A stretch of 64,000 nucleotides of DNA from the IMG/VR virus record IMGVR_UViG_3300032326_002475, positions 6,912 to 70,911 of that record; one strand, written 5' to 3'. This document shows positions 18,044 through 39,249 of this stretch, in pieces (position 1 is the stretch's first letter; each line of letters opens with the position of its first letter). The DNA comes from a virus. Below the pieces are notes generated by a model. That model was not told where the DNA came from. It made no database searches and saw nothing but the letters and a program-made list of their open reading frames with translations. The translations under genes and the position numbers were made by a program.

Positions 18044-18081
18044 AATTATTTTTTCTCCTCAAGAAAGAATACATTAAGTGA

Positions 18082-18109: not shown

Positions 18110-18120
18110 AATGTATTTAT

Positions 18121-18999: not shown

Positions 19000-19004
19000 A
19001 ATTT

Positions 19005-20464: not shown

Positions 20465-20473
20465 AGCTATTAT

Positions 20474-20501
20474 TTTCTTATATAAAATTATCTAAACCTT
20501 C
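20474..20501 (-). promoter_or_regulatory. Putative late promoter (SigH-like), overlapping the terminase stop
   Basis: Minus strand reads GAAGGTTTA-N12-TAAGAAA. Confidence 0.6.
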
Positions 20502-22611: not shown

Positions 22612-23372
22612 TATTTATAACAAGTCAAGTAGATCCAATATTTATGAATATACTCTTCATAAGAATTTTGTATTGAATAATCTACTTTCTTAAATCCTAT
22701 CTTAAAAAGATCATCAAATAGGTTATTAGGATCTGTCACCCTAACATCATATTCCCCATGAGAGCCAGAAGCATTGTAAACATTGTCATAATAACCTGCT
22801 ACAGGAAGCTGACTAGGAAATATTCCAACTTGGCTCTTCATTCTTACAAACCAGTGATTTGGAAATGCTCTTTCTTTCAAGTTCTCTCCAAAGCCCATTT
22901 GAAAAGTGAAAACACCATCTGTTTTCATTACTCTATAAATTTCTTTAAGTAACTCTAACCTAAATTTATGAATTGGAATGTGTTGAAATACTAGAGTAGA
23001 TATTACAAAGTCAAAAGATTCATCATTAAACTTTTTAAGATTTCTGCCTGAGGTTTTATGAAAGTGATATTTAGAGTCTTGAAAATTTTTGATATTTTCA
23101 TCAATATTTTTTTTACTTAAATCAACACCATGTAGTTCTTTCCAGTTTGCTAGACCATCAAGATTCTTTAGATTTCTTCCTCTAGATGTGCCAAAATCAA
23201 GGGCAGATTTATCTTCCCATTTTTCAGGTTCAGAAGAAATAGGCTTTAATAAAATATCCCAATACAAGGGATTTAAGTCGTGTCTGTCATAATCTGAAGT
23301 GCCAAATGATGTTTCTTCATATAACATTTCTAAATATTGACTCAATTCATCGTTATCAAGGCTAAAAAACAT
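22611..23372 (-). CDS. Class I SAM-dependent methyltransferase
   Basis: ALDFGTSRGR, GVDLS, FDFVISTLVFQHI, EIYRVMKTDG. Confidence 0.85.
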   Translation of the reverse strand: MFFSLDNDELSQYLEMLYEETSFGTSDYDRHDLNPLYWDILLKPISSEPEKWEDKSALDFGTSRGRNLKNLDGLANWKELHGVDLSKKNIDENIKNFQDSKYHFHKTSGRNLKKFNDESFDFVISTLVFQHIPIHKFRLELLKEIYRVMKTDGVFTFQMGFGENLKERAFPNHWFVRMKSQVGIFPSQLPVAGYYDNVYNASGSHGEYDVRVTDPNNLFDDLFKIGFKKVDYSIQNSYEEYIHKYWIYLTCYK

Positions 23373-24046
23373 TAGTTATCCTGTTGAATTTTTTGGCGTA
23401 AGAATTGGATTTCATCTCTAATTCTTTTTTTATCAGCTTCTGTTTCCATATCATTATGAAGTTTAGAAAGAATTTCAAAAATGTTGATAGCATAAATTCC
23501 AGCATTATCTCTAGTTTCCTTAAGATAAAGAATCTTTGAAATTAATTTTTCAACCATAGCAGCACGTCTTAATTTAAGATCATTGTTTTTACTACAGTCC
23601 ATTCCTCTAACATCATCTAATTCTACAAGTAAAGCAGTTAGTGCAAGTTGTTGCTCTCTGAAAATCCAAGGTGTAATTAATTCTTCTCTTTGCTCATAGT
23701 TTTTAAGACCAGACGTTGAAATTTTCTTGAAATCACAATGCTGCTCCATATGAGTGTTAACTTGCATCCAGTTCAGTTTAGCATCAAAATGTTTAGCAAA
23801 AAAAGTAATTACTGATTGAACTTTTCTGCCATTGTCTAAAAAAACATGCTCAGCTAAATCTCTAAATGGGGATGTGCAAATGGTACATCTAGGTTCAAGA
23901 AATTGAGGATATGAAATATCACTCATATTATCTTGTGGCAAAGGAATTAGGGGAAGCTCTCCTTCTTTTAAGTGAGCAAACATCCGAGAAGGCTTCTTTG
24001 GATCGTTTACTATGAGAGAATCAACTTTACTTTTGTTATCTTCCAT
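23372..24046 (-). CDS. Zn-finger/HTH protein, candidate terminase small subunit
   Basis: PRCTICTSPFR...HMEQH followed by helical segments; upstream of terL. Confidence 0.4.
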   Translation of the reverse strand: MEDNKSKVDSLIVNDPKKPSRMFAHLKEGELPLIPLPQDNMSDISYPQFLEPRCTICTSPFRDLAEHVFLDNGRKVQSVITFFAKHFDAKLNWMQVNTHMEQHCDFKKISTSGLKNYEQREELITPWIFREQQLALTALLVELDDVRGMDCSKNNDLKLRRAAMVEKLISKILYLKETRDNAGIYAINIFEILSKLHNDMETEADKKRIRDEIQFLRQKIQQDN

Positions 24047-24065
24047 TTAATGTGTTATACAAGCA

Positions 24066-24091
24066 AAACAAGCCGCAAAATGCGGCTTGTT
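24066..24091. terminator. Intrinsic terminator
   Basis: aacaagccgca aaa tgcggcttgtt. Confidence 0.75.
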
Positions 24092-24111
24092 CAATTGTCC
24101 AGTTTTATAGA

Positions 24112-24828
24112 TTAGTCTCTTAAGGCTCTCTTAAGTCTAGCATAGGGGGAGATGCTATCAGCTGCAGAAACCATGTATTCATCTGCCAAGCCAAAATAAG
24201 CATAGTTGCCTTCAATAAACTTTTGGCTTGATGAAGTTGCATTATTAAGATCAACTTCTGCAGTTCCTTTTCTCATAGAAACTACTACTTTTGAATTACT
24301 CTTAGCTTCTACTACAGCATTTTCTGTTTGGGATTTAAGTACAGAATTTAATAAAGCCTCTTCTACCCATGGCTTCAATTCTTTGTGTAAAGCAGTTCTC
24401 ATGGATTCATTATCTTTAGCCATTTGAACAAGCTTAAGCCAGCTTTCAACACCCTTGCTGTCAGTTTTTACAATTGAGTGCTCACCAAGTGTAAGCTTCT
24501 TGACAAATTCCTTTGCAGAAAATTTTTCGAGTGTCTTCTCAATGATTGGAGAACAATCTGAATATTTAGTTGGGACAACTGCAACTTCAATTGCTTGTTT
24601 TGCAATTGTGCCTTCATTGTTATCAAAAAGCTTAGATGCAACTCTATTAGCAACTTCTAAATCATAGTTATCTGCTGCTAAAAGTTCAACTACTTCTGAT
24701 TTATCAAAACCTTGATTTTTATATTTTTGAGCTTGTGAACTGGCTACTACAAAAACGCCATCACTATGTGAGCGTAATTCATTTCTCCAGTTATAAATCA
24801 TGTCATCGGATAAGTTATTTTCAGCCAC
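24112..24828 (-). CDS. Hypothetical protein
   Basis: ORF; the start is probably the GTG at 24828, after the SD-like AAGGGG. Confidence 0.55.
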   Translation of the reverse strand: MAENNLSDDMIYNWRNELRSHSDGVFVVASSQAQKYKNQGFDKSEVVELLAADNYDLEVANRVASKLFDNNEGTIAKQAIEVAVVPTKYSDCSPIIEKTLEKFSAKEFVKKLTLGEHSIVKTDSKGVESWLKLVQMAKDNESMRTALHKELKPWVEEALLNSVLKSQTENAVVEAKSNSKVVVSMRKGTAEVDLNNATSSSQKFIEGNYAYFGLADEYMVSAADSISPYARLKRALRD

Positions 24829-24951
24829 TGTGACAATCCCCTTTAAAGAAATAAAACCCCTAGACATAGTTTTAGCGTCTTAGAGGTTTTTGTGGAACAT
24901 AATAACATAATACAAAAATTTTAAAAATATATTCCAACAACTTTGATATTA

Positions 24952-25515
24952 CTAATCAAATAAGAAGTCTTCACCTAAAATTGATTTTAATTGCTCAAGT
25001 GCCTTTGACAATCTTTTAGAAAAAGCTCCTTGAGTAATTCCAAGTATTTCAGCTGCTTCTGTTTGACTATACTGTTCAAAAAAGTAAAGCTGAATTATGT
25101 CTGATTCATTCTCGTTAAGTAGTTTCATAGCGTTCTGCAATGAAATGATTGTGTCTATTTTATTGAAAGGGTCATAGGAAACTTCTTCTGAAAAGTGATT
25201 CTGTATCCTATCTTCTTCTTTTATGTATTTTTCAGTAACATGTCTAAATAAGTTTATATCAATTCTAGTAGATATAAAATAGGAAAAATATGTGAGTTCT
25301 GGATCATATTGTTTGACAATTTTTTGAAGAACAAATAGTGATTCTTCAAACATATCTTCTCTGTGAACGGATAATCTTGGCTCTTTGATGATACATCTCT
25401 TGATAGATGCGTAAAGCAAAGGTTTATAAAATCCAAAAAGTTCAAAGAGTGCATCTGTATCACCTGACTTAGTCTTTATAACTAAGTCATTTATTTGTCC
25501 ATATTTATCATCCAT
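24952..25515 (-). CDS. Sigma-70 family (ECF-size) RNA polymerase sigma factor
   Basis: KSGDTDALFEL, region 2 EDMFEES...YDPE..FSYFI, region 4 YSQTEAAEILGITQGAFSKRLSKAL. Confidence 0.85.
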   Translation of the reverse strand: MDDKYGQINDLVIKTKSGDTDALFELFGFYKPLLYASIKRCIIKEPRLSVHREDMFEESLFVLQKIVKQYDPELTYFSYFISTRIDINLFRHVTEKYIKEEDRIQNHFSEEVSYDPFNKIDTIISLQNAMKLLNENESDIIQLYFFEQYSQTEAAEILGITQGAFSKRLSKALEQLKSILGEDFLFD

Positions 25516-25522
25516 AACTTAT

Positions 25523-26518
25523 TTATACATTTGCCAATTTATTAATTGCAATCATATTAGCTACATCTGACTCGCCATATAGTCTTGCCTCTCCTATATG
25601 ATCTGTAACTAAAGATATCATTTCACTTAGTTGTTTAGTTGATAAATTGTTTTCATTTAGAGCAATCTTTATTCTTATGGGATTGTGATTTTTAGGTTGA
25701 AAATTAGTTACTTCATAATTTTCTGACAGATATTTACCACCTAAATCTCTAAGCTCTAATATTTCTTGAACTTTGTCAGGGGAATATATCCTATTTTTTT
25801 GACACTCTGAAATGACAAGTAAAAAATAAAGCTGTTGAAGTAATATCAGAAAAAATCCTTGAGTTGTAAATTCTTCAAGCACCTTTTGTAAATTAGAATT
25901 GATATATGAAACATCACGATTAAATAACTTTTTGAAATATTCAAAAATATCATGCTCAACGTTAAACTTTGAATTACTAAAATGTTCAACAGTAATATTT
26001 GAGCTTATAATGCTGACTTTGTCTATTTCCTTAAAAAGTAAATCAATATCATAATACAAAACTTCTTTCTTAGATGTTTTGTTTTTGACTTTTATAATCG
26101 GACAATTAAGTAGCACCCAATCAATGCATTTACTATCAAAATTTACTTTGAACTTTTCAGCATACTTATAAAGAAGGTTTCTAAGTACATTAAAATCTCC
26201 AAACACAGGATATAGAGCAGAATATATGTTATTGCTCTTCTTTATCTTTTGTATTAATGAAGATCTGCCATCATATCCATCATCATCAAAAAGCAATATG
26301 TGCTTATCGATTTTCTTGTCTATAAAATAAGAAATCTTCTTGATAGTTTCTGTATTTGGGTTGTCGTAAAGATATATATTATTAAGATCAAAAAATGGAG
26401 AGTAGCTTGCTAATTGTTTGTCTATATTATCTACAAAGATAAAATTAGCATCTGGAAATGACTCTTTAATTTGAGACATGTAAAGATATCTTGATCCATA
26501 ATAAATTCTAGGTAACAT
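25523..26518 (-). CDS. DNA polymerase III delta (HolA)-like clamp loader subunit
   Basis: Size, LFKEIDK and DIFEYF segments, and adjacency to the beta clamp. Confidence 0.55.
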   Translation of the reverse strand: MLPRIYYGSRYLYMSQIKESFPDANFIFVDNIDKQLASYSPFFDLNNIYLYDNPNTETIKKISYFIDKKIDKHILLFDDDGYDGRSSLIQKIKKSNNIYSALYPVFGDFNVLRNLLYKYAEKFKVNFDSKCIDWVLLNCPIIKVKNKTSKKEVLYYDIDLLFKEIDKVSIISSNITVEHFSNSKFNVEHDIFEYFKKLFNRDVSYINSNLQKVLEEFTTQGFFLILLQQLYFLLVISECQKNRIYSPDKVQEILELRDLGGKYLSENYEVTNFQPKNHNPIRIKIALNENNLSTKQLSEMISLVTDHIGEARLYGESDVANMIAINKLANV

Positions 26519-26519
26519 A

Positions 26520-27641
26520 TTACTCCATAGGAAACATAATATGATTGAAATTCATATCATGTAATACACAAATAGTGTATCCATTGTAGTCATTGAAGGC
26601 AAGAGTAATTTGCTCAAGATTTACTATTTCAAGAGCCTTGATAAAGTGATTTATTAGATATGAAACATCAATAGAATCAACAGCTTCATCTAACAAGATC
26701 TTGTCAGCAACAGCACCCTTATCGTCTCTTGAACTTGAGATTATTAATTCATTCCCATTTGTTCTTAAGTTAAACGTATGTGAGCTTGTAATGTTTGATA
26801 TAAATCTCAAGGACTTTATGACTTGATTTTTATCAATCGTAAAAGAAGTGACATGCTTAGACTCATCAAAAAACTTATTAAATGAATTGTATACGCTTTG
26901 ATAAGAATTGTTTTCTAAGCTAGTGACAAAGATATTATTTTGCCACTTAATTATCAATTTATTCTTGAAAATGCAATAAGTATAAGCTTCATCTTTATTT
27001 AAGAAGTTAAGCAGTAATTCAGCTTGGTTTTTAGCAATCAAATATGACTGTTCATTAGAGAATCTAGAGCCAAATATTGAAATCCTATGTTTGTCTGATG
27101 ATTGAGAATTAAACTCTCCGTCTTTAAGAAAAAACATAATAGATGAATAAGGATGTTCATCAAAATCTGGCGCACATGAAAAGGCAGAAAATTTAATCAG
27201 ATTAATTAAGTTTTCAACGTCTAGTTTCTTAAACTTTATATCTTCACTTAAGAAAAATATGCTATTGAGTATTTCATCAAAATTATTAGCTTGCAAAGTA
27301 CTAAGGGCAACTCTAGTCTTCTTATTTCCAAATACGAGTTGATTTTCTTCATTTGCAAAAACAAATTGAATTTCATCAGCTGGGAAATTAGAAAAAGCGT
27401 TATTAAATAAATTTGATTCAACTCCAAAATTATAGAATTCATCTTGAAAGTCACACAAATATAGCATTGATGAACTTATGGAATTTGAAGAATATACATA
27501 AATTTTATTTTGAAGGCAATAAAATACTAATGAATCACTTGCAATAGCTTTGTTTTCATTGAGAGTAATTTTATTCTTAGATATCTTGTTAAGTAATTGT
27601 ACTTTTGAAAGATGCTCAGTTTTGTTCAGCTTAAATTTCAA
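26520..27641 (-). CDS. dnaN: DNA polymerase III beta sliding clamp
   Basis: 373 aa with a three-domain size; SSDKHRIS (cf. ATDGHRL) and C-terminal IMFPM. Confidence 0.75.
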   Translation of the reverse strand: MKFKLNKTEHLSKVQLLNKISKNKITLNENKAIASDSLVFYCLQNKIYVYSSNSISSSMLYLCDFQDEFYNFGVESNLFNNAFSNFPADEIQFVFANEENQLVFGNKKTRVALSTLQANNFDEILNSIFFLSEDIKFKKLDVENLINLIKFSAFSCAPDFDEHPYSSIMFFLKDGEFNSQSSDKHRISIFGSRFSNEQSYLIAKNQAELLLNFLNKDEAYTYCIFKNKLIIKWQNNIFVTSLENNSYQSVYNSFNKFFDESKHVTSFTIDKNQVIKSLRFISNITSSHTFNLRTNGNELIISSSRDDKGAVADKILLDEAVDSIDVSYLINHFIKALEIVNLEQITLAFNDYNGYTICVLHDMNFNHIMFPME

Positions 27642-28633
27642 TGCAGTTGTCCTTGGAATTCTACTTCAACACCTGGATTGTATCGTGTAATGTGATTGAT
27701 AATCTTAAGCATAAAAGTGCCTTCATCAGAGCATACATTTAATATGTCATCCTGATAAAAATTCCATCCATCATTGACCTGATCAAGAACATCCATTTTA
27801 TTGACAATAAGCTTAGTTATGCCGTTCATTTGACAAGCTGTAGTTACTTCATCAATATTCAGCCAATCTATTTGTCTTGGTCGCCCTGTAGTGGCTCCGT
27901 ATTCTTGACCAATCTCACGCAGTTGTTCAAATCTATTGTCGTCTTTTTGGTATCCTTTAGCTCCAACATAGGTAGAATAACACTTGATAACCCCGACAAC
28001 ATCCCGTACTTGCTTATAATTGAAACCATTGTTTAGAACTGCTCCTACTCCAGTATTTGAAGAAGTTACGTAAGGATAATCACCAAAGTCAATGTCAAGC
28101 CAATATCCTTGAGCACCTTCAGCTAAAAACTTCTTTGGTGATGAGTGAATAAGACTGTGCATGTCAACAAGATAATTTTGTAGCTCATCGATATCTTCTG
28201 CACGTAAGCCTGCACGAGCCACTTTGTCTCTGTAACAAGGGCCATTTCCAGTGCGTGTTGTTCCAATCTTTGTATCTTTGGAATCTTCTACTATATGATT
28301 TTTTGTTATGATATGTGCATTTTTAGCTATTTTAAGGATTGATGTGTCAAACCCAAATCCTTCAAGATACTCAAGTTCTTCAAATAACTTTTCCGTATTG
28401 ATAACACAACCATTACCAATGACACTAGGAATGCCATGCAAAATACCACAAGGAACCATGTGTGTAACAATTTTCTCTCCATTGAGGTAAATTGTATGAC
28501 CAGCATTGCCTCCACCATTAAAGCGGACAACGTAGTCATACTCACCAGATGCAGCCATTTGATTGGCTATTTTTCCCTTACCCTCATCGCCATACTGCAT
28601 ACCGATAACTACATCAACAATTGAAGTTTCCAT
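27638..28633 (-). CDS. purA: Adenylosuccinate synthetase (short form)
   Basis: QYGDEGKGK, GGGNAGHT, IGTTRTGNGP, EGAQGYWLDIDFGDYPYVTSS, EYGATTGRPR, NKMD. Confidence 0.93.
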   Translation of the reverse strand: METSIVDVVIGMQYGDEGKGKIANQMAASGEYDYVVRFNGGGNAGHTIYLNGEKIVTHMVPCGILHGIPSVIGNGCVINTEKLFEELEYLEGFGFDTSILKIAKNAHIITKNHIVEDSKDTKIGTTRTGNGPCYRDKVARAGLRAEDIDELQNYLVDMHSLIHSSPKKFLAEGAQGYWLDIDFGDYPYVTSSNTGVGAVLNNGFNYKQVRDVVGVIKCYSTYVGAKGYQKDDNRFEQLREIGQEYGATTGRPRQIDWLNIDEVTTACQMNGITKLIVNKMDVLDQVNDGWNFYQDDILNVCSDEGTFMLKIINHITRYNPGVEVEFQGQLH

Positions 28634-28671
28634 ATGCAAATCTTACTACATTGTAAGATCTTTAGCAAGAG

Positions 28672-29274
28672 TTATGACAAGTCTCTTTCAGCATCATATA
28701 AATTTTCATTCTTGTCAACTTCATAATCACCCGACATTACATCAATAGAAGCATATGGAAATCTTTCTCTTACATATTCTTTTGCTTCTTCAGCAGTGTA
28801 ATCTTCAATCGGTAAATTTGTTGAATAAAGAACATCATATGTTATTTTTTCAAGATCTTCTTCACTACTATACAGTTCCTCTAATCCTGGAACTGAAAGT
28901 TGGTCAGTGAGCAATTTGCCTTCTTTATCTGACATTTTTGATAACCCTTGCAATGACAGTGGATCTATGAATGAAAATTTCCAAACACCATCTTTTGCAA
29001 ATATGAAAATTTGTGAATAAATTTCAAAAAATCTTCTATAGTCAGAAAAACCATAATCAGATTCAGCTACATTGTCTGAAGTCATTTGGTCAATTACGTC
29101 TAAAGGATCTTTACCAGTAGATCTTGATCTGTCTAATACGTGATCTGAAAACGTAATAGGTTTTTTTGGTAATTCAAAATCACTTTGATCGATAGCAATT
29201 TTAGTTATTTTATCTGCTAATTTATATTTTCCAACTTGATCTAAAAATGAAGCTAAGCGTAATATTTTTTTCAT
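28672..29274 (-). CDS. Hypothetical protein with an N-terminal LDxxGxYxxAD tag
   Basis: MKKILRLASFLDQVGKYKLADKITKIA. Confidence 0.55.
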   Translation of the reverse strand: MKKILRLASFLDQVGKYKLADKITKIAIDQSDFELPKKPITFSDHVLDRSRSTGKDPLDVIDQMTSDNVAESDYGFSDYRRFFEIYSQIFIFAKDGVWKFSFIDPLSLQGLSKMSDKEGKLLTDQLSVPGLEELYSSEEDLEKITYDVLYSTNLPIEDYTAEEAKEYVRERFPYASIDVMSGDYEVDKNENLYDAERDLS

Positions 29275-29277
29275 ATA

Positions 29278-29979
29278 TTACTTTTTTGGTAAATTATGTG
29301 ACGCATCCTGTTTCTCGTCAGTCCTAAATTGCGTATAAACCTCTGTTGCCTTTTTACGTATTCTTGTAAGAGCATTATCAACACATTTTGCTGGAACATT
29401 AAGCGTGTTTGATATATCTTTATATGATGATCGTAAGCAATACTCTACAAATATATCAGCTTCTAAAGGGGTAAGTTTTTCAAGTAGCAATGATGAATTC
29501 AACTCGAGTTCTTCTCTGACAATTATATCTTCAAGTAAATTTACTGGAGGAGACTCATCATAGGGGTTTTTCTTTTCAGGAATATAGTCCCCCAAAGTAT
29601 GAAAATTCCCATCATCATTAAGGATAAAAGGAGCATCTAAAGAAATTGAATCATTCAGCGCTGAATTTTTCATTCTTTTAGCAGAAGCGATTGCAGTTGC
29701 TAAGTGTCTTTTACATACTAAGTTTACACAAAAGTTTTTAAAAGTGGTATCCTTAGTACAATCGTACGAGTTTACTGCTTTGTAAACACCTAGCCTCAAT
29801 TCTTGCATAACATCTTCTCTGTCGCCACCAACAATAAAAAAGTGTGGAGCAATCTTTTTGAGGTCAGGTTCTACCATTTTTAAAAGTTTCTTAAATGAAA
29901 CTTCATCGCCTTTTTTAGCCTTATTGACTATTCTTACAATTCTTGGATCTTCAGATGCCATCAAATCTCCTGAGGGCAA
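29278..29979 (-). CDS. sigH: SigH (Spo0H)-like RNA polymerase sigma factor
   Basis: FFIVGGDREDVMQE..GVYKA, FKNF...AIASAKRMK..LNDSISLDAP and SYKDIS...KCVDNALTRIRKK parallel the Bacillus SigH signature. Confidence 0.85.
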   Translation of the reverse strand: MPSGDLMASEDPRIVRIVNKAKKGDEVSFKKLLKMVEPDLKKIAPHFFIVGGDREDVMQELRLGVYKAVNSYDCTKDTTFKNFCVNLVCKRHLATAIASAKRMKNSALNDSISLDAPFILNDDGNFHTLGDYIPEKKNPYDESPPVNLLEDIIVREELELNSSLLLEKLTPLEADIFVEYCLRSSYKDISNTLNVPAKCVDNALTRIRKKATEVYTQFRTDEKQDASHNLPKK

Positions 29980-29998
29980 ATATCTTTTTTAATCCTTT

Positions 29999-31066
29999 TT
30001 ACGCTTCTTTTAAATTAGCGTACTTTTCAATAACTTTGAGAACTCCGGTAATTGCCAAGATATCCTCAGAAACAGTTTGCCTTGTGTTATTAGAAATGTT
30101 ATACAAATCTTCAGCTAGCATTAATAAATGCAAAGTTTTTACAGATTTTGCTATATTTTCTATTTCAGGATCTCTTTCAACCTTTTTTGTTCTTAATACT
30201 ACATATTCAAATGCTTTTAAGAAAGTACGAGATGTATCAATAAGAAGTCCAGTCAGACTTCTACCTTCAGATTGAGACGCTTGAATTATCCTCATAGAAT
30301 CTGCATAATTCAAATCAATAATAGAATTAGCAAGATTGAGAGATACATGTTTTGGAGATTTACCTAAAATTTCTCTGACATTTTCTTCAGATATTTCAGC
30401 CACAGTTACTTGCTCTAGGATTGATAAAGCATTTCTAGCACTTCCATCAGATTCTTTAACAATTAGGTTTAATGCATCAATATCATATTCCAGCTTTTCT
30501 TTCTGACAAATATCTTCTAATAATTCAAGGCAGTTTGAGTCAGAAAGCTTCTTAAGATTTAGAGTTTGGCATCTGGTATGAATAGCTCTCAGAATCTTAT
30601 GTGGATCTGTAGTGCAAAAAAAGAACTTTACAAACTGAGGAGGTTCTTCAGTAAGTTTGATAAGTGAAGTCTGAGCTTGATTTGTTAGCATTTGAGCTTC
30701 ATCAAGAATAAAAATCTTGTATTTACCAGACACAGGAGAGAGTCTTGAGAATTGGATTACATTCTCTCTAATATGGTCAACACCATTATTGACAGCACAA
30801 TTAATCTCATAAATATCAGGATGAGAATCATTAATTACCATCTGCTTTGTATTATCATCTGAATCATTTGCAGATAGTAACTTCATAGCAGCAATACGAG
30901 CCAAAGTAGTCTTCCCTGTACCTGGAGGGCCTGAAAGGATGTATGCATGAGTTGTTTTATTATTCTTAATTTGTAAATCAAGAATAGACGCAGCAATACA
31001 TCCCTTTAAATCATCAAATTCTGTAGGTCGATATTTATTGTAAAAACTTTGACTAATCATCATCAT
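29999..31066 (-). CDS. dnaX: DNA polymerase III gamma/tau clamp loader subunit
   Basis: KYRPTEF, HAYILSGPPGTGKTT, IFILDEAQML, LIKLTEEPP, TRCQ, GSARNALS. Confidence 0.92.
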   Translation of the reverse strand: MMMISQSFYNKYRPTEFDDLKGCIAASILDLQIKNNKTTHAYILSGPPGTGKTTLARIAAMKLLSANDSDDNTKQMVINDSHPDIYEINCAVNNGVDHIRENVIQFSRLSPVSGKYKIFILDEAQMLTNQAQTSLIKLTEEPPQFVKFFFCTTDPHKILRAIHTRCQTLNLKKLSDSNCLELLEDICQKEKLEYDIDALNLIVKESDGSARNALSILEQVTVAEISEENVREILGKSPKHVSLNLANSIIDLNYADSMRIIQASQSEGRSLTGLLIDTSRTFLKAFEYVVLRTKKVERDPEIENIAKSVKTLHLLMLAEDLYNISNNTRQTVSEDILAITGVLKVIEKYANLKEA

Positions 31067-31529
31067 CCATTGGCACTATAAGAGGGATATCGTTATCAAG
31101 AAGTGATGGCAAATTATCTTTATCCATCCAATATGGGCCAAACCCACTTCTAACAAAATATTCTACTATAAAGCCATAATCCTGTACATCGTAATTTCTA
31201 ATCTTACCATCTAATGCTGGGCTAATCGAGTAAAGAGACTTGAATATCAACCATTCCTTTTTTGTTTTTTCTGTCTGATCCCAAATTTCAGACCAAACAG
31301 CAAAACAATAAATTTTACTATTACCAGAAGATCGTAATATATCTCTTGCCCATGACTGAGTAAGCCCCGACATGATACATGCCGGGGCGTTCTTGCTTTT
31401 ATATCCATCCATTTCAACAAAATGGACTAAGCTCAAGTCAACGTATCCAATAAACATATAGTATTTTTCAATTAACTTTTCAGCTATATTGAAACATTCT
31501 TGAGATTCTATAAAATCTGGTTCACTCAT
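31053..31529 (-). CDS. Phage putative-metallopeptidase-like protein lacking the HExxH motif
   Basis: IAEKLIEKY...W...LIFKSLYSI...GKIRNYDVQDY pattern. Confidence 0.4.
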   Translation of the reverse strand: MSEPDFIESQECFNIAEKLIEKYYMFIGYVDLSLVHFVEMDGYKSKNAPACIMSGLTQSWARDILRSSGNSKIYCFAVWSEIWDQTEKTKKEWLIFKSLYSISPALDGKIRNYDVQDYGFIVEYFVRSGFGPYWMDKDNLPSLLDNDIPLIVPMDDDD

Positions 31530-31861
31530 AATGACAACTGTGTAACTGCTACAACTTGATTGCTCTGGTCACGAATTGCTGTTGGGCCTGTATCTACGCA
31601 AAAAACATCTTCTCTATTGAATGGCACAAAATCCATTGCAAGTCTGTTTACAATATAGTAGACACCATCTTCAGGCTCAGGAAGATTTACAATTTTTTCA
31701 AAGTGAGTTTCAGCAATAGGAATTCCAGCCAAGTAAGCAACAATTCTTTGCTTTGTCTCTACACGACAAGGATTATCACATCTTGGTAAAGTTGCGTGTC
31801 CTGAAATTGTAATATCGTGCCCAATCAAGTTCACAAATTTCTTAAATTCTGGATAAATCAT
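31526..31861 (-). CDS. Conserved small phage hypothetical protein
   Basis: NLIGHDI...NLPEPEDGVYYIV...RD. Confidence 0.55.
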   Translation of the reverse strand: MIYPEFKKFVNLIGHDITISGHATLPRCDNPCRVETKQRIVAYLAGIPIAETHFEKIVNLPEPEDGVYYIVNRLAMDFVPFNREDVFCVDTGPTAIRDQSNQVVAVTQLSL

Positions 31862-32235
31862 AATTCAATACCTGCAATTCCTTCATTACGTGCTGGCTGA
31901 TAAACAAAAGCAGATTGGTCTCCATTAGCTCTTAAATCATTAATAAGAACCCTAGATCCACCGCCAATGCCCATCACTAATTGATCATAAACAATACCAG
32001 CAAAAGAAAGCTGCTTGACTGTTACATCTCGCAAGCTTTCTTTACGTCCAGTAGTAAGAATGACTTTGAACCCCTTACTATCCCATTCACGAATCTTGTC
32101 TACAGTTCCATGAATAATTTTTGGTTGATATCCAGGCTTAGCAATTTCAGTTGGATCACCTTGCTCCCAAAGTGTTCCATCTAAATCACAAAAAATAGTG
32201 TAATTCTTTGTGGCTTGATCAATGTTGTGTTCCAT
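31858..32235 (-). CDS. HAD-superfamily phosphatase-like protein
   Basis: IFCDLDGTL, ILTTGR, YDQLVMG, LIND. Confidence 0.8.
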   Translation of the reverse strand: MEHNIDQATKNYTIFCDLDGTLWEQGDPTEIAKPGYQPKIIHGTVDKIREWDSKGFKVILTTGRKESLRDVTVKQLSFAGIVYDQLVMGIGGGSRVLINDLRANGDQSAFVYQPARNEGIAGIEL

Positions 32236-32756
32236 TACTTACCTGTACTACCTAATCCACCCTTACGAGATGTTTTATCAGTTGCACCAAATTCTTTTAC
32301 TTCAACCAATTCATGATTTGCTAACTTTGCTACAACCATTTGAGCAATCCGATCACCATGCTTGATAGAAAATGGAATCTTGTTATGATTGATAAGAATG
32401 ACCTTAAGTTCAAAGTCTTCTCCATCACCACAATAGTCAGAGTCAATAGTACCAGGAGTATTAAGTACAGTAACTCCAAACTTTGCTGCCAGTCCAGATC
32501 GAGGACGAATTTGAATTTCATATCCATTAGGAATATTGACATTCAAGCCTGTAGGAACAATCATAGTTGAATGTGGTGAAATAAGAGTTTGCTCATCATA
32601 AGAATCTTTCAACCATGCACAAAGATCATATCCAGCAGCACTTTCCGTTGCTTTCTTAGGAATTACAGCATCTTCACGAAATGCTTTAATTTCAACTGTT
32701 GCCTTAACAACATTAGGCATGTTTACTGTAACTTGTCCGCTTCCCGATGTAGCCAT
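32235..32756 (-). CDS. dut: Trimeric dUTPase
   Basis: AAGYDL, RPRSGLA, GTIDSDY, GDRIAQ, RKGGLGSTG. Confidence 0.95.
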   Translation of the reverse strand: MATSGSGQVTVNMPNVVKATVEIKAFREDAVIPKKATESAAGYDLCAWLKDSYDEQTLISPHSTMIVPTGLNVNIPNGYEIQIRPRSGLAAKFGVTVLNTPGTIDSDYCGDGEDFELKVILINHNKIPFSIKHGDRIAQMVVAKLANHELVEVKEFGATDKTSRKGGLGSTGK

Positions 32757-33074
32757 TTAAATACCTTCCTCATTCTTAATCATATCTGCAGTAATTTCTT
32801 GATCATCAGGGTTAAAAATAAGAGATAATGGATACTCTCGATTCTTAAGTTCAATAGAGAAATTAATTAATTCTCTACCTTCCAAATATCTATTCATTTT
32901 TGTAATTTCCTTAATATCATCAAGCGAAAGTACAGCAGTATAAATTCTTTCAGTCTTTACATCTTTTAATTGAAGCCAAATGTATTGAACAATTGTAGGC
33001 TCATCTTCACTGCCTTCATCTTCTTTCAACACAGCATCTAAAATTTTCACTTCTCTGATAGTAGGTTTTCCCAT
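32757..33074 (-). CDS. Hypothetical protein
   Basis: 105-aa ORF with TATAAT 6 nt upstream of the ATG. Confidence 0.6.
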   Translation of the reverse strand: MGKPTIREVKILDAVLKEDEGSEDEPTIVQYIWLQLKDVKTERIYTAVLSLDDIKEITKMNRYLEGRELINFSIELKNREYPLSLIFNPDDQEITADMIKNEEGI

Positions 33075-33112
33075 AAAATGATTATATCTTGTAATAACAA
33101 AAATGTAAAATC

Positions 33113-33140
33113 AAAGGAGATGAATAGTAAAACATTAAAA
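33113..33140 (+). promoter_or_regulatory. Possible late-type promoter for the MWY island
   Basis: AAAGGAGAT-N12-ATTAAAA; good -35 match, degenerate -10. Confidence 0.4.
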
Positions 33141-33148
33141 CAATAAGT

Positions 33149-33619
33149 ATGTGGTACAAAACAGCTCTCAAGGGACATAAGACTTACTATGATTTTAATG
33201 ATCTAAGTTATGAATTAAAGCAAGTTAATGACACTGATGATAGTGAATGGAAACCTTCTGGAGCAAGAATGAGAACAATTTCATATGTTTTAAATGCATA
33301 TGACTTAGAGCACATGGATAAAGATAAGCCAGTTGGAAAAATGCTATTAGACTTGGATTTCTATACTTCTGGAAAAAAACAAATATATATCAATTTAGTG
33401 AGAACTGATGATTATCATGAAGGTATGGGAGTAGCAACCAATCTTTATAAATGGCTTAAGTATAATTACGAGAATTTTGATAAACCAGAATGGATAGTCA
33501 GTAATCCTATCAATCCAGCTGCAGAAAGAATTAGAGAAAAAATATTAGGAAAACCCCAAAGTTTATCTCCTATGCGTGAATATGATTTAGATTACACTCA
33601 AGGAAAATTGGATCTTTAA
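33149..33619 (+). CDS. GNAT-fold protein with an MWY leader
   Basis: YINLVRTDDYHEGMGVATNLY resembles GNAT motif A. Confidence 0.6.
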   Translation: MWYKTALKGHKTYYDFNDLSYELKQVNDTDDSEWKPSGARMRTISYVLNAYDLEHMDKDKPVGKMLLDLDFYTSGKKQIYINLVRTDDYHEGMGVATNLYKWLKYNYENFDKPEWIVSNPINPAAERIREKILGKPQSLSPMREYDLDYTQGKLDL

Positions 33620-34255
33620 ATGTGGTATAGATTAGCTATAAAACCAAATATACCTGATAATGTTTTTGAACAACATGTAAAAGAAAAAACTCCTAAACCT
33701 ATTCCTGTCTCAGATATATGGACAGGTTCAGGAAGTGAGCATTTGATTCTTTCTGGTGATGAAAACGTACATCAAGCAGTAAGTCACAGTAACTTTCTTG
33801 ACAGAGTTTTAGAAAGCGCAAGGGAAAGTGTAAGCCAAAATCCTGAAATTAGAGAGAAATATAATATATCTGCATTTCCAGAATATGCATTTGGGCCTGA
33901 AGATTTAGTACAAAGAAGAAGAGAGAAATTAGGGCCAAGATACAATTCAGAAGATGCCGTAACAGAGATTCTTCATAAATACTTTGACAGAGGCATTAGA
34001 ATTAGTAAAATGGGAAGCACTATGACAATAAATGCCTTTGCACCTCCTTCAGATCAGCAAAATGCCAAAATTTTTGAAATCATACATAAGTTACAGCCTC
34101 AAGATGTAGTTTTTATAATCAATTCTGATAAGGGCAAATTTGAAAAAGTTTATGATATTGATAGAGTGCATGATTATAATGAAGATTTGAAAAGCTTCAT
34201 GGTTACTGGTCCACCGAAATATGTCTCAGATATATCCCGTTGGAGAAATTTATAG
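33620..34255 (+). CDS. Hypothetical protein with an MWY leader
   Basis: Starts MWYRLAIK directly after the previous stop. Confidence 0.6.
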   Translation: MWYRLAIKPNIPDNVFEQHVKEKTPKPIPVSDIWTGSGSEHLILSGDENVHQAVSHSNFLDRVLESARESVSQNPEIREKYNISAFPEYAFGPEDLVQRRREKLGPRYNSEDAVTEILHKYFDRGIRISKMGSTMTINAFAPPSDQQNAKIFEIIHKLQPQDVVFIINSDKGKFEKVYDIDRVHDYNEDLKSFMVTGPPKYVSDISRWRNL

Positions 34256-34734
34256 TGTGGTATAAATTAGCTCAAGAAGAAAACCTTGAAATTCACCCTA
34301 AAGATGAACAAGCTAGAAAATATTATGGAATTACTTTTAATCCAAATAAAGCTGGTTATATCTTAAGGGATGGAAAACTTCTAGATTATTCTGAAGGTCA
34401 ATATGAAAGAACACTAGACCATAGAGATATTCAAAATATTATGGACGAACCTGAAGAATCTAAAGGTGATAGATATTCTGATTATGTTGAGCCTTTTCTC
34501 AATCTAACTGGTGCTATTAGAGCTTCTTATATGAATAATGAATGGAGTATTGATATACATACTTCACCCACTGAAGAACAAAAAAAAATTATAGTGAATT
34601 TTCATAAACCAGGAAGATCATTTTATTATGATGTTGATAAATTCAGAATACAAAGTTCCATAGAAAACGCATCCAAAGATGATGTTGAGAAAAAAATTGA
34701 AGAAATACAAGGTATGTTTTCCAATGTGGTATAA
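34255..34734 (+). CDS. Protein with an MWY leader and an AGYILxDGxxLDxS...DHRxI domain, as seen in phage polyvalent proteins
   Basis: GTG at 34255 overlaps the previous TAG and gives MWYKLAQ. Confidence 0.6.
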   Translation: MWYKLAQEENLEIHPKDEQARKYYGITFNPNKAGYILRDGKLLDYSEGQYERTLDHRDIQNIMDEPEESKGDRYSDYVEPFLNLTGAIRASYMNNEWSIDIHTSPTEEQKKIIVNFHKPGRSFYYDVDKFRIQSSIENASKDDVEKKIEEIQGMFSNVV

Positions 34735-35527
34735 ATTTGCACAGTCTCAAGATGACATACAAAAACTAGTTGATTTCTTTTTGGAAAAATATCCTGGTTT
34801 AGTCTTAAGAATCAATGAATATGAAAACAAAATCAAATTAGATAAAATCTCTGTACCAGTAGCATTGAGAAATCAAGGTATAGGCACAGAGATAATTAAT
34901 GTTCTTAAGGAATATAGTCAAAGAGTGGGCAAACCTATTGTTCTTAACCCTGAACCTGAAAAAGGTAAAAAGGGAGCACTACAAAGATTTTATGAAAGAA
35001 ATGAATTTGTAGATAATGCTGGAAGAAAAAAAGATTACGATTTGACAGATACATTTTCTAGAACTATGTATTATAAACCAAAAAAAACTATAGCTTCAAA
35101 CAATTTTTTTGAAGACAGTTTGAAAAGTCTTACTTCAGAATTTGTTGACGTTGCACAACAAATTTATGATGCTTGGGATGAGAATCCTGATGTGTATGGT
35201 GGTGGAGGAATTTGTCATCTTATTGCAGATTCTTTTGTTGAAATAATAAACAAAAACTATCCAAACTATACTACAACAACATTTACAAGAGATGATATAC
35301 AACACGTTGAGACCATAGTATATAACATTGATCCAGATATCTTATATGATGAAGATGATGAGAGTAATGAATTAGTTGAATTAGTCATTGTAGGTTTGAG
35401 CCCTTTTATTTATGAAAGAGGCGGAGGATTTTCATGGACAAAAATTCCAGATGTAGAATTCTCAAATAATGACATAACATTTTACAAAACTACAATAAAT
35501 AGACAAAACATAGATACAGATTACTAA
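34724..35527 (+). CDS. Two-domain protein with an MWY leader: GNAT domain plus a GGxC/H (papain/transglutaminase-like) domain
   Basis: ATG at 34724 gives MWYKFAQ. ISVPVALRNQGIGTEII...LQRFYERNEF is GNAT-like, followed by GGGGICHLIA...QHVET. Confidence 0.65.
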   Translation: MWYKFAQSQDDIQKLVDFFLEKYPGLVLRINEYENKIKLDKISVPVALRNQGIGTEIINVLKEYSQRVGKPIVLNPEPEKGKKGALQRFYERNEFVDNAGRKKDYDLTDTFSRTMYYKPKKTIASNNFFEDSLKSLTSEFVDVAQQIYDAWDENPDVYGGGGICHLIADSFVEIINKNYPNYTTTTFTRDDIQHVETIVYNIDPDILYDEDDESNELVELVIVGLSPFIYERGGGFSWTKIPDVEFSNNDITFYKTTINRQNIDTDY

Positions 35528-35558
35528 AAAAAGAGGGGATTTCTCCCCTCTTTTTTTT
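35526..35558. terminator. Bidirectional intrinsic terminator between convergent genes
   Basis: aaaaaaagagggga tttc tcccctctttttt. Confidence 0.85.
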
Positions 35559-36741
35559 AGTGTAATCCTTTTGATTGAAGAAACTTAATAAATTCTTCTT
35601 TATCATATTTGTCATTTTTGCTTAAATTATCAAAAGCATCTAAGGGTTGTAAATTTTCCAAAGAGTTAATTATTTTGATGTGTTCTATTTCACATAATCC
35701 AAAGTCTATAAATGCCTGTATTGGAAAAATATGATCAATTTGCATGTTGTTGTTTTTAATCGCATTTTGGTAATTAGGATGGTTAGTTACATGGAATCCA
35801 AGATCATAATGACTGTAGCCTAAATTTTCATATGATTTATTTTCTTTTTTTAGATTAAATTTTTGATAACATCTTCTAAGCATAGAATAAATTTTCTTTG
35901 CATATTGTTTTCTAAATTCTACTTTAGTTCTATCTTCAATCCAAAAAGGATGATTTTTACCAGTCAGTTTTTCCGTTTTTATTTTTTTTGAACATTCTTC
36001 ACAAGCATTATTAGCTCCTCTAAATTTTAAATAATTCCAAGCTCTTTCGTATTCTATGCCACATTCACATCTTAATAATAATTTGCCTTTATCAGACTTT
36101 TCAAATGTATGAAAACTGATCAAATGTAAATTGTTTTCTATAATAAATTTACTTACTTGTTCTTTATTTATTGTGTACTTTTTTCTTCCGCAATCCCAGC
36201 AATTTTTACATTTTTTGAATGTATGATATGTTGTAATAGCTTTTTTTCCACATTTGCATATAAATTCAAGTTTTTGTTCATCTCCGGTGTATTCAGAAAG
36301 TAATTTACAGCCATTATTTGTGAATAAATTTTCTACGTGTTCTTGACTATGTCTTCTACTGTTTGCACTTTTCTTTAAACCACATTCTACACATCTTTCC
36401 CCAGCTATAAATTTATGAATAATTTTGTAGTCGATTTTTCCACAATCGCAAATATATTCAAGTTTTTTTCCTGGAATATACTTCGTACTTATTAGTTTAT
36501 TGCCTCTAGATTTGAAAATATTTTTGACTTCCTCATAACTTTTAGTTCTACCATTGTTTTTATAAGCACAAAGTCTACATTTTGGATTCTTTTTAAATGT
36601 AGCTAAATTCTTAATATCTTCTTTTCCACAATAACATATAAAATTTAATGGTTGTGTATTATCAATATAAGTTTCAGCTAACAGAATACAATTATTTTCT
36701 AAAAAAAAATTTTTAATGTCTTCTAATGTAAATTTCTTCAT
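35557..36741 (-). mobile_element. Free-standing HNH homing endonuclease-like gene with repeated Zn-ribbon units
   Basis: Four ~55-aa repeats (FICYCG, YICDCG, FICKCG, LRCECG, each with a later CxxC) and a C-terminal IDHIFP...NLQPL..DNLSKND; very AT-rich; directly downstream of nrdA. Confidence 0.75.
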
Positions 36742-36745
36742 AATG

Positions 36746-36796
36746 TTAAATCCAAAAAGGGATATATAAATAATATATACCCCTTTTTGGATTTAA
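36746..36796. promoter_or_regulatory. Long hairpin between nrdA and the HNH gene
   Basis: 16-bp perfect stem ttaaatccaaaaaggg/ccctttttggatttaa plus an inner AT stem. Confidence 0.7.
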
Positions 36797-36804
36797 TTGT
36801 AAAT

Positions 36805-39249
36805 TTATGCTCCGCAGCTCTCGCAGTCTGGATCACCCAACGAACATACTTTAGCAGCAAATTCTTCAGCATCAAATTCCTTCATTTGCTCTACTTCTTT
36901 TGGCTTCTCCACTTCTTGGATTGATGCACTAGAGAGATCAATTCCAAGACCCTTTAATGCTTGGGCTTTAGGCTTGACACGGAGATAATACATTCCAGTC
37001 TTCAATCCTAATTTCCATCCAAACATATGAGCAGAAGAAAGCTTAGATGCAGTAGGTTCAGCCATAAACATATTTAACGACTGGCTTTGATCAATAAAGT
37101 AAGAACGATCACGAGCCATTTCAAGAATAGACTTACCCTTCATCTCCCAAACTGTCTTGTATATTTCCTTAATATCAGTTGGAATTTCAGGGATGTTTTG
37201 GACTGAACCATTCTCATTAAATAATTTCAGTCTAACATTGTCACTCCAGATACCAAGATTGACAAGATCTTCCACTAAATGCTTGTTGATTACAGCATAT
37301 TCACCACTCAAAGTATTACGCTTATAGAGATTGGTAGTGAAAGGCTCAAAACACTCATTATTCCCAAGAATTTGAGCTGTTGAAGCTGTAGGCATTGGAG
37401 CAACAAGAAGTGAATTTCTCAAACCAAATTGCTTGATTTCTTCTTTGAGCGCTGAAAAATCCCACATACCGGAAAGATCATTTTCAGAAAGTCCCCAGAG
37501 GTCATATTGTAATAAACCTTGAGATGCTGGAGATCCTTCAAAAGACGCATAAGAGCCATGTTGCTTAGCCAAATCCTTAGATGCAGTAAGAGCAGCAAAG
37601 TAAATTGTTTCAAATATATCTTTGTTTAACTTCTTTGCTTCTTCTGATTCAAACGGTAGACCCATCATCACAAAAGTATCAGCTAAACCCTGAACACCCA
37701 AACCAATTGGACGATGCTTGAGATTTGAATTTTTTGTTTCAGGTGTAGGATAAAAATTCACATCAATAACTTGATTCAAGTTAACTGTTGCTTGATAAAC
37801 AACGTCATACAAGAATTTGAAATCATACTTACGTAATTTCTTATCCTTCTCACGTACTTTGCCAGATGGAATAATTACATACTTTGGAAGAGCAACAGAA
37901 GCAAGATTACATACAGCAATTTCATTCTTATCTGTATATTCCAAAATTTCTGTACAGAGGTTTGAAGATTTGATTGTTCCAAGATTCTTCTGATTGCTCT
38001 TGTAATTACATGCATCCTTGTAAAGCATATAAGGAGTACCAGTTTCAACTTGTGAATCTAGAATCTTTTCCCACAATTCACGAGCCTTGATGGTCTTGAG
38101 CGCTTTACCTTCAGACTCATACTTCTCAAAAAGTTCAGTAAAAGATTTCTTGTCCGGAGAGTCATAAGCATCAATCAAGCCTGGAACTTGGTCAGGAGAG
38201 AACAATGACCAATTGCCATCAGCTTCAACACGCTTCATAAACAAGTCAGGAATCCACATAGCTAAGAACAAGTCTCTAGCACGTAATTCTTCCTTGCCTT
38301 GATTCTTACGAAGTTCAAGAAAATCAAAGATATCACCGTGCCAAGGCTCAAGGTAAACAGCAATTGAACCCTTACGCTTTCCACCACCCTGATCAACATA
38401 ACGTGCAGTCTCATTGAACACCTTGAGCATTGGGATAATTCCATTAGAATATCCGTTAGTGCCCTTGATGTAACTACCCTTAGCACGAATCTTATGAATG
38501 TTGATGCCAATTCCACCCGCAGATTGAGAAATCAATGCACAGTCAGAAAGCGTCTTATAAATGCCTGGGATACTATCGTCATCAATGTCAAGCAAGAAGC
38601 AGGATGATAACTGTGGACGATTAGTTGAAGCATTGAAAAGAGTTGGAGTAGCATGTGTAAAAAGACCTTGTGAAAGCATGTCATAAGTCTTCTGCACCAT
38701 CTCTAAATTGTCACGCCAAATACCCACAGAAACACGCATATAAAGATGTTGTGGAGTTTCTGCTGGGACATTATCAATTTTGAGTAGATATGATTTACGC
38801 AAAGTCATAAATCCAAAGTAGTCAAAGTTGAAATCTCTATCATGAACAATCATTGCATCAAGTTCTTGAGAATACTTTTGTATGACTTCAAATACTTCAT
38901 CAGAAATCATTCCAGCACTATCACCAGTCTTTGGATTGATATACTCATAAAGTTTTTTTGCTATTACAGAGAAGTCTTTTTCAACATCTTTATAAAGAGC
39001 TGTAATAGCAATGCGAGCAGCTAACTTACCAAAGTCAGGATGCACAGTGACCATAGAAGCAGCAGTCTCAGCGCTAAGCTGATCAAGCTCAGTGCTGGAA
39101 ACACCATCATAAAGTCCAGACACAACTTTAGTGCTTACTATGTCTGGATCAACACGTTCATTCAAACCATATGTAAGCTTCTTGATACGTGAAGAAATCT
39201 TTTCTAATTTTACTGGTTCTCTTGAACCATTACGCTTTAGGATATCCAT
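36805..39249 (-). CDS. nrdA: Ribonucleotide reductase class Ia alpha subunit with ATP cone
   Basis: KRNG ATP cone, ATPTLFN, QLSSCFL, SNLCTEI, VCNLAS, APMPTAST, YYLR, C-terminal CESC. Confidence 0.97.
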   Translation of the reverse strand: MDILKRNGSREPVKLEKISSRIKKLTYGLNERVDPDIVSTKVVSGLYDGVSSTELDQLSAETAASMVTVHPDFGKLAARIAITALYKDVEKDFSVIAKKLYEYINPKTGDSAGMISDEVFEVIQKYSQELDAMIVHDRDFNFDYFGFMTLRKSYLLKIDNVPAETPQHLYMRVSVGIWRDNLEMVQKTYDMLSQGLFTHATPTLFNASTNRPQLSSCFLLDIDDDSIPGIYKTLSDCALISQSAGGIGINIHKIRAKGSYIKGTNGYSNGIIPMLKVFNETARYVDQGGGKRKGSIAVYLEPWHGDIFDFLELRKNQGKEELRARDLFLAMWIPDLFMKRVEADGNWSLFSPDQVPGLIDAYDSPDKKSFTELFEKYESEGKALKTIKARELWEKILDSQVETGTPYMLYKDACNYKSNQKNLGTIKSSNLCTEILEYTDKNEIAVCNLASVALPKYVIIPSGKVREKDKKLRKYDFKFLYDVVYQATVNLNQVIDVNFYPTPETKNSNLKHRPIGLGVQGLADTFVMMGLPFESEEAKKLNKDIFETIYFAALTASKDLAKQHGSYASFEGSPASQGLLQYDLWGLSENDLSGMWDFSALKEEIKQFGLRNSLLVAPMPTASTAQILGNNECFEPFTTNLYKRNTLSGEYAVINKHLVEDLVNLGIWSDNVRLKLFNENGSVQNIPEIPTDIKEIYKTVWEMKGKSILEMARDRSYFIDQSQSLNMFMAEPTASKLSSAHMFGWKLGLKTGMYYLRVKPKAQALKGLGIDLSSASIQEVEKPKEVEQMKEFDAEEFAAKVCSLGDPDCESCGA

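Follow-up and report, generated by a model that had tools for sequence, protein, structure and literature searches.

Encapsulins send unrelated enzymes into an HK97-fold shell by means of a short terminal cargo-loading peptide. The internal proteins of bacteriophage T4 (IPI-III, Alt) are, in excerpts of PMC3012670, diverse and fast-changing anti-host or defence proteins whose sole common element is a short N-terminal leader, the capsid targeting sequence (CTS), which is tied to the prohead core and its protease. In the phiKZ-like phage SPN3US, according to excerpts of PMC7411985 and PMC10052503, an essential prohead protease acts on numerous proteins inside the head and cuts them at a recurring motif. 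Iyer et al. 2017, in the excerpted text of PMC5512222, predict that the domain types of the polyvalent repertoire are packaged and injected. Here we describe a portable, strictly N-terminal seven-residue leader, M-W-Y-[K/R]-hydrophobic-A-(Q), in a 64-kb stretch (the window) of the 70.9-kb IMG/VR record IMGVR_UViG_3300032326_002475. The leader, or tag, begins four adjacent genes (the island) and a fifth gene beside the portal gene, and may direct their products to the phage head. The completeness of the record by CheckV is 17%, so that it is a fragment of a giant phage.

The closest described systems share some properties with this locus and differ in others. As with the CTS, a short N-terminal leader stands on unrelated proteins (five genes in the window; 35 clusters with relatives included), and the MWY genes, like those of the T4 internal proteins, sit in variable cassettes. 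Unlike T4, the carriers are G-like giant phages of an unrelated lineage, whose portal is Mu-type and whose scaffold is fused to a protease. The MWY leader is shorter than the CTS and has another sequence; its presumed site ends in Ala, and its cargo consists of enzymatic polyvalent-type modules, up to 15 per genome. T4 prohead-protease sites end in an acidic residue. The propeptides of SPN3US are long and protein-specific, unlike a common seven-residue tag, and their cleavage motif differs. Encapsulin loading peptides are usually C-terminal, are retained and have another sequence, whereas the MWY leader is N-terminal.

Five genes in the window begin with a common leader

The tagged genes are as follows.

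33149–33619, plus strand: tagged gene 1, ATG start, begins MWYKTAL (leader codons 33149–33169), 156 residues
33620–34255, plus strand: tagged gene 2, ATG start, begins MWYRLAI (leader codons 33620–33640), 211 residues
34255–34734, plus strand: tagged gene 3, GTG start, begins MWYKLAQ (leader codons 34255–34275), 159 residues
34724–35527, plus strand: tagged gene 4, ATG start, begins MWYKFAQ (leader codons 34724–34744), 267 residues
13282–13659, minus strand: fifth tagged gene, begins MWYRVVK(AA) (leader codons 13639–13659), 125 residues

Nearly all genes of the window lie on the minus strand, the exception being the four-gene plus-strand operon at 33149–35527. Its genes are tightly packed: gene 2 starts on the base right after the gene 1 stop, the GTG of gene 3 shares one base with the gene 2 stop, and genes 3 and 4 overlap by 11 bases. 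A sequence-only reading of this DNA had corrected the four starts to ATG 33149, ATG 33620, GTG 34255 and ATG 34724, each giving an MWY(K/R)xA leader, and all four are indeed real. The MWY starts at 34255 and 34724 are preferred over a TTG at 34240 and an ATG at 34679 because relatives carry an in-frame stop 0–3 codons upstream of the MWY start and because database homologues are called from MWY. The fifth gene, which the same reading had placed beside the portal with the start MWYRVVKAA, is also borne out, and it stops 8 nucleotides before the portal gene.

The window contains DTGTGGTAYARR five times where 0.13 occurrences are expected, and none of 100 shuffles reached five. All five matches are starts of open reading frames (ORFs), that is, 5 of the 63 ORFs tabulated for the window. 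These counts exclude the possibility, named in advance as a refutation, that the motif is no more frequent at N-termini than chance would make it. The four island proteins had been described as lacking obvious similarity beyond the leader, apart from GNAT-like motifs in two; past residue 8, the five tagged proteins fall into five different BLASTP clusters.

The leader is portable among related phages

When a viral collection was scanned with a single codon version of MWYKxAQ, 45 stretches came back, most of them on contigs of 100–480 kb, a count given without a chance expectation. Thirty-eight of the matches stand at ORF starts, three lie within longer ORFs, and four fall in ORFs shorter than 50 residues and are probably due to chance. 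With all loci pooled, the relatives yielded 98 distinct tagged proteins, which after removal of the first eight residues form 35 clusters unlinked by BLASTP. At ten related viral loci the island lies between the same flanking genes (a 105-residue gene and ribonucleotide reductase) and differs in content; its proteins there, which include ones of 161, 234, 281, 522, 644 and 650 residues, all start with MWY[KR]xA. The tag is kept in the gene 1 orthologues of loci L006 and L014, and the gene 2 orthologue in L006/L007 has the same leader.

One relative, G009 (358 kb, 89% complete, 396 ORFs), was read whole. MWY starts were found in 15 of its 396 ORFs against 0.2 expected, and W-Y is the commonest residue pair after the initiator Met. 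Inside proteins, by comparison, W-Y is at its expected level (59 versus 58.3) and WY[KR]xA occurs once. Seven of the 15 have a tagged gene as direct neighbour, and several run opposite to the genes on both sides, as the island does here. In another record, G010, the nine-base pattern stood at control level. The scan of relatives for enrichment and cargo diversity that had been proposed along with the leader came out in its favour, with 35 unrelated clusters and up to 15 tagged genes in one genome (G009). A further G009 gene, at 9026–9703 on the plus strand, begins M-S-P-W-Y-K-T-A-K, which may be a tag shifted by two residues or a miscalled start.

The homologues of gene 4 show how the tag follows the domains. 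Among the 29 fetched of 59 matches, six full-length two-domain forms start with MWY, as do seven stand-alone copies of the C-terminal domain (148–151 residues) and a truncated chimera (P0046). Four others without MWY (P0009, P0010, P0047, P0048) look like fragments or later internal starts, and the 11 most distant have other N-termini and no MWY tag. Since the seven stand-alone copies start with MWY, the domain gets its own tag when it is its own gene; in split forms, each half bears an MWY tag. In P0062, a database protein of 425 residues, a tagged GNAT-like family is fused with the gene 3 domain, and the junction retains K-K-K-Y-R-I-A-Q, which is the tag without Met-Trp. Such sequences show that modules both fuse and split.

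These observations could also be read as docking of the modules on a common hub outside the virion, be it a chaperone, a cytoplasmic scaffold for a non-covalent 'polyvalent' complex or a phage compartment. The evidence of portability serves this explanation too, and free fusion and splitting, as in two-domain gene 4 versus separately tagged halves, fits modules that work together; so does the 425-residue fusion with its vestigial Y-R-I-A-Q. However, no candidate hub was identified, and the only conserved genomic association found is that with the head module described below. We consider a non-virion hub quite unlikely.

The leader is conserved as protein

Codon use and information content were tabulated for 80 distinct N-termini. 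Tyr is encoded by TAT in 53 and by TAC in 27, the basic residue at position 4 by AAA, AAG, AGA, AGG, CGA and CGT, and Ala at position 6 by all four GCN codons. Information content is high only at positions 1–7, the values at positions 4, 6 and 7 being inflated by the search pattern of the collection scan, and it is at background level after residue 7. Because synonymous codons vary, selection acts on the protein, and the refuting alternative of conservation at the DNA level only is excluded.

It could still be argued that ATGTGGTAY enhances translation initiation, or serves as a short recombination site for exchanging cassettes, and that the peptide has no role. Met and Trp are single-codon residues, so the first six bases cannot tell the protein level from the DNA level; moreover, relatives keep the flanking genes of the island while the locus between them is hypervariable, and GTAAA lies within 35 nucleotides of the start in 25 of 102 distinct upstream regions. 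The codon variety at positions 4 and 6, however, speaks against such a role. Tags also occur on genes that come first as well as on internal, translationally coupled ones, whose upstream sequences are unrelated, and nine fixed bases would not suffice for homologous exchange. We therefore give this explanation hardly any credence.

GTAAA, often as GTAAA-N-GTAAA, was also noticed by itself upstream of tagged genes (for example at 33096–33148 and in L006–L015), where no obvious Shine-Dalgarno sequence is seen. A role of GTAAA-N-GTAAA as a shared late promoter is not supported: G009 has 12 such sites, of which only two, overlapping each other, precede a gene start, that of one tagged operon.

AlphaFold models the first ten residues of gene 4 with a mean predicted local distance difference test score (pLDDT) of only 58, compared with 88–89 for the next three ten-residue blocks. 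This fits a leader that is an appendage rather than part of the predicted fold.

Cargo of the tagged genes

Gene 4 comprises two domains, a mini-GNAT at residues 1–120 (34724–35083) and a GGGICH domain at residues 124–267 (35093–35524), and its model has a pLDDT of 82.9. The N-terminal domain is predicted to adopt a minimal GNAT fold. Its best structural match is AcrVA5 (6iuf), an anti-CRISPR acetyltransferase that is itself a minimal GNAT of ~95 residues (VIA Z 11.6, root-mean-square deviation 2.9, 93 aligned residues, 26% identity; Foldseek E 6.7e-5), and all six chains with a VIA Z of at least 8 are annotated as acetyltransferases or AcrVA5. The domain scored below the Pfam gathering score (Acetyltransf_7, 20.2 bits against a cut-off of 27). 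Unlike AcrVA5, gene 4 adds the MWY leader and, in this phage, a C-terminal Cys/His domain, and the fold and 26% identity do not imply the same substrate. The mini-GNAT also matches positions 2696–2799 of a 3925-residue PHROG profile and is found inside annotated genes of 11.6 kb and 7.5 kb in two podophages.

The C-terminal domain of gene 4, folded alone, reached a pLDDT of 89.2. Its best VIA rows are an arylamine N-acetyltransferase (Z 5.9) and LapG (Z 5.6), with TglA, SseI, vasohibin and transglutaminases scoring lower and every row under Z 8; Foldseek returned no match at E≤0.001. Across 16 sequences, Cys41 and His71 hardly vary. The papain-like label that the sequence-only reading gave this GGxC/H domain is suggestive only, the resemblance to papain- or transglutaminase-like cysteine enzymes being weak. 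That reading had also counted two GNAT folds, of which the one in gene 4 stands. The other, in gene 1, is weak: Pfam Acetyltransf_1 matched at E 0.15, hhalign to the mini-GNAT gave a probability of 14%, a Gly-x-Gly segment is present, and no solved structure came up in a profile search at E≤1. The gene 1 cargo may thus be called only weakly GNAT-like. For gene 2, no family was recognised in Pfam and PHROG profile searches, and an Atlas structure search had no usable match.

The domain of gene 3, described before by its AGYILxDG..DHR motif, is by profile searches a widespread uncharacterised module of giant multidomain proteins. It was found in 1516 representative proteins at E≤0.001; among the best 150 of these, 50 exceed 1000 residues and 32 exceed 2000, with the domain internal, and only five start with MWY. 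A 1379-residue protein joins it to ART-PolyVal. Against solved structures, the profile search gave one match at E 0.089, and the Atlas search no usable one.

Beyond the window, 9 of 30 cluster representatives matched Pfam and 21 matched nothing. The matched cargo comprises ART-PolyVal, InPase, NUDIX with HAD_SAK_2, PcfJ, Peptidase_M23, AAA_33, two proteins with multiple helix-turn-helix (HTH) domains and one weak GNAT. The claim of interchangeable effector-type cargo is upheld by the 35 clusters, which include domains of the polyvalent repertoire. In L009, a 650-residue tagged protein (8047–9999, plus strand) has the sequence H-E-I-G-H, which hints at a zinc metallopeptidase; no Pfam family matched it at E≤0.01.

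In its content, the tagged cargo resembles polyvalent proteins as described in excerpts of PMC5512222: ART-PolyVal, InPase, NUDIX, GNAT, PcfJ and the gene 3 domain are common to both. In polyvalent proteins, the gene 3 domain sits within chains of 1000–5900 residues. Unlike polyvalent proteins, which hold 2–15 domains per chain, tagged modules are mostly separate genes of 100–650 residues, each with its own leader; in the island, genes 1–3 are of single-domain size (156, 211 and 159 residues) and only gene 4 has two domains. MuF (PF04233), which usually anchors the polyvalent proteins of phages, turned up in none of five records, one of them 100% complete. The island also lies ~20 kb from the portal gene, which only the small fifth tagged gene adjoins. 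'Leader' and 'N-terminal motif' are not among the terms in the excerpted text of PMC5512222. It appears from these domain matches that the tagged cargo consists of the swappable effector modules that other phages string into giant 'polyvalent' virion proteins.

The second half of the leader matches a motif of the head module

The head genes to which the leader was compared are the following.

10913–13273, minus strand: portal protein, Mu-type, with a C-terminal DUF559/MTES_1575 domain and six [KR]-x-A-[QS] sites
6646–10782, minus strand: prohead protease-scaffold polyprotein, 1378 residues, with the protease domain in the first ~250 residues and six [KR]-x-A-[QS] sites
3245–4099, minus strand: major capsid protein, 284 residues (phrog_2522, E 9.8e-68)

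The fifth tagged gene is directly upstream of the portal gene, and a tagged portal neighbour was also present in all six relatives checked. Its orthologues, of 177–180 residues with an MWYKQVL start, hold the same place in five of five relatives and in G009.

Residues 4–7 of the tag constitute the motif [KR]-x-A-[QS], which is concentrated in the head module. In 14 head-module proteins of the window it occurs 22 times against 6.6±2.6 expected, a count reached by none of 500 within-protein shuffles, whereas in 42 other window proteins it is found 11 times against 9.1 expected. Six sites are in the protease-scaffold, six in the portal protein, four in a 556-residue protein and the rest in four others. 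The head zone of G009 likewise has 28 against 7.3 expected (0 of 200 shuffles), with a mild excess outside it (84 versus 62.9), and the four largest excesses in that genome belong to the protease-scaffold, the portal protein and two head-module proteins. In an alignment of scaffold orthologues with identities of 69, 66, 52 and 40%, five sites kept the motif in all six sequences, although only 24% of the columns are invariant; the conserved sites vary in K/R and in the middle residue. The head-module protein beside the terminase has a nine-residue start ending in K-T-A-S, and its G009 orthologue has R-I-A-Q.

A recurring, conserved, head-restricted motif in scaffold and portal fits a prohead-protease site, and its presence in the second half of the leader fits such a site there as well. 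The N-terminal domain encoded at 6646–10782 is assigned as an HK97-type prohead protease by family match (phrog_18299, E 1.8e-20) and by His126 and Ser177, invariant in six orthologues, which we take to be catalytic. It is presumed to be the enzyme that acts on [KR]-x-A-[QS]. In ending in Ala followed by Ser or Gln, the motif resembles the sites of the structurally related herpesvirus proteases.

Phage G gp4, gp7, gp14 (portal) and gp19 (head module) have K-x-A-S sites, listed here without statistics. Excerpts of the phage G preprint (10.1101/2024.12.16.628780) report no cleavage sites in their text; they do describe particle proteomes that contain many enzymes.

Several N-termini outside the tagged set carry related sequences. 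The protease-scaffold itself starts (10765–10782) with M-Y-K-V-A-K, tag-like without Trp; its orthologues have MYRVAK, MKKVAK and MERRAK, and [KR]-x-A-K at the start is kept in four of six aligned orthologues. A second, longer N-terminal leader class, L-[KR]-[LV]-A-S-[FL]-L-D..G.Y.L.DK, contains [KR]-x-A-S and sits on otherwise different proteins, at 28672–29274 and 19005–19463 (both minus strand) in the window and at 68007–68630, 192768–193352 and 120255–121652 in G009. By eye, P0059, a distant homologue of the gene 4 C-terminal domain, has a leader of this longer type in place of MWY. In G009, 10 of 381 untagged ORFs have [KR]-x-A-S in their first 15 residues. The C-terminal DUF559/MTES_1575 domain of the portal protein (residues 673–772) is restriction-endonuclease-like.

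The leader might instead be a turnover or activation signal apart from packaging, either an N-terminal ClpXP/ClpAP degron that times early effectors or a pro-peptide cut in the cytoplasm. It is short, strictly N-terminal and of the pattern hydrophobic-hydrophobic-basic-hydrophobic, and it resembles one class of N-terminal ClpX recognition signals that Flynn and colleagues reportedly described in 2003. G009 encodes ClpP (E 3.9e-68), phage G encodes ClpP and ClpX according to excerpts of 10.1101/2024.12.16.628780, and the tagged cargo includes regulators. However, only one of five tag-bearing records has a phage ClpP, and the two records with a completeness rating of 100% both lack it. A degron also leaves unexplained why a conserved tagged gene sits beside the portal and why the second half of the leader is a motif confined to the head module, and we think it an unlikely explanation.

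The best explanation, to which we give about an even chance, is by analogy with the T4 CTS that the MWY sequence is a head-loading leader ending in a protease site. The leader would first address each module to the assembling prohead; the scaffold-fused prohead protease would then cut it off at the [K/R]-x-A site; the mature enzymes would remain in the head and enter the host along with the DNA. Binding to a head component, cleavage, packaging and injection of the tagged proteins are all steps that we infer.

A number of points weigh against head loading. No virion proteome exists for any tag-bearing phage, and MWY genes were not found in phage G, the nearest cultured relative, where two pattern matches give ORFs of 13 residues. 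Cleavage at [KR]-x-A-[QS] is itself deduced, the major capsid protein has no such site, and the residue after Ala is usually Ser in head proteins but Gln or another residue in most tags. The tagged cargo is not depleted of internal motifs, as proteins enclosed together with the protease might be (5 versus 6.6 expected, a low-power test). The inflation of the statistics at positions 4, 6 and 7 counts here too: of the 15 members of the unbiased G009 set, 13 have K/R at position 4 and only 9 have Ala at position 6 (12 if Ser is counted with Ala). The tagged multi-HTH proteins are not obviously virion material.

Two further results concern the cargo and the protease. A hydrophobic variant of the motif occurs in the cargo 0 times against 2.2 expected, which is not significant (57 of 500 shuffles were as low). 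Complex prediction for the protease domain (residues 1–275; six-row alignment) with gene 3 (eight-row alignment) scored 0.01 against a mark of 0.32, which speaks neither for nor against an interaction.

Surroundings of the island and placement of the phage

Just beyond gene 4 lie the following features.

35533–35558, no strand assigned: GC-rich hairpin with a 7-base-pair stem and a 4-nucleotide loop, flanked by an A-run and a T-run
35557–36741, minus strand: HNH endonuclease gene, between the island and ribonucleotide reductase

The hairpin is likely a two-way terminator that closes the island; it was found by reading the sequence, and a consensus scan did not list it. The HNH gene has the look of an insertion: in relative L009 the island is followed immediately by the reductase, and contigs from an RNA run pass from 35553 straight to 36804, leaving out 1250 bases. 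Over 17001–37000, the contigs of this one run (9% of sampled words) are short and come from relatives, with almost none on the island, and the run carries no information on transcription or timing there. A sigma-70 scan of the island was at shuffle level (16 versus 17).

Aligned over its whole length with gp27 of Bacillus phage G, the major capsid protein shows 47.9% identity, which makes this uncultured freshwater clade a distant relative of phage G. The protein has only 284 residues; the phage G genome is 498 kb. In a search of cultured relatives, the large terminase reached at most 27% identity to any phage record, a 904-residue tagged protein had no match, and a PcfJ-like tagged protein had matches at only 11–13% coverage; blastn of the island against phage records gave no match. 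The tag is seen in no cultured relative. By these comparisons, the tag users appear to be a clade of uncultured freshwater giant phages, distantly related to Bacillus phage G.

Discussion

The sequence-only reading had taken the leader for a portable address tag that loads effectors into the head. Our data support this in part: the leader is portable, N-terminal and selected as protein, it is carried by effector-type cargo, and it is linked to the head by a portal neighbour and by a motif match. What is new here is that a lineage unrelated to T4 has a CTS-like leader, shorter than that of T4 and attached to polyvalent-type cargo. A literature search on the motif string MWYK found nothing relevant among the matches listed, as judged by title and abstract start.

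We more tentatively propose, at somewhat less than an even chance, that this clade has replaced the covalent polyvalent virion protein with modular loading, so that any gene gaining seven codons (M-W-Y-K/R-x-A-Q) would become head cargo, released in the head by the scaffold-borne protease.

If the leader does load the head, it would be the shortest known capsid-loading signal and a second, independent invention of the T4 logic of an address tag plus a protease site. Its short length would make it a convenient handle for loading foreign proteins into capsids. The tag alone would then list the injected proteome of uncultured giant phages, including an AcrVA5-like acetyltransferase, ADP-ribosyltransferases, RNA-repair enzymes and a cell-wall peptidase. 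It would thereby offer a ready list of candidate anti-defence and host-takeover enzymes, of which about two thirds of those scanned (21 of 30) have no known family. Taken together with the polyvalent repertoire, to which it would link the tag logic, this would suggest how giant proteins and small tagged genes interconvert.

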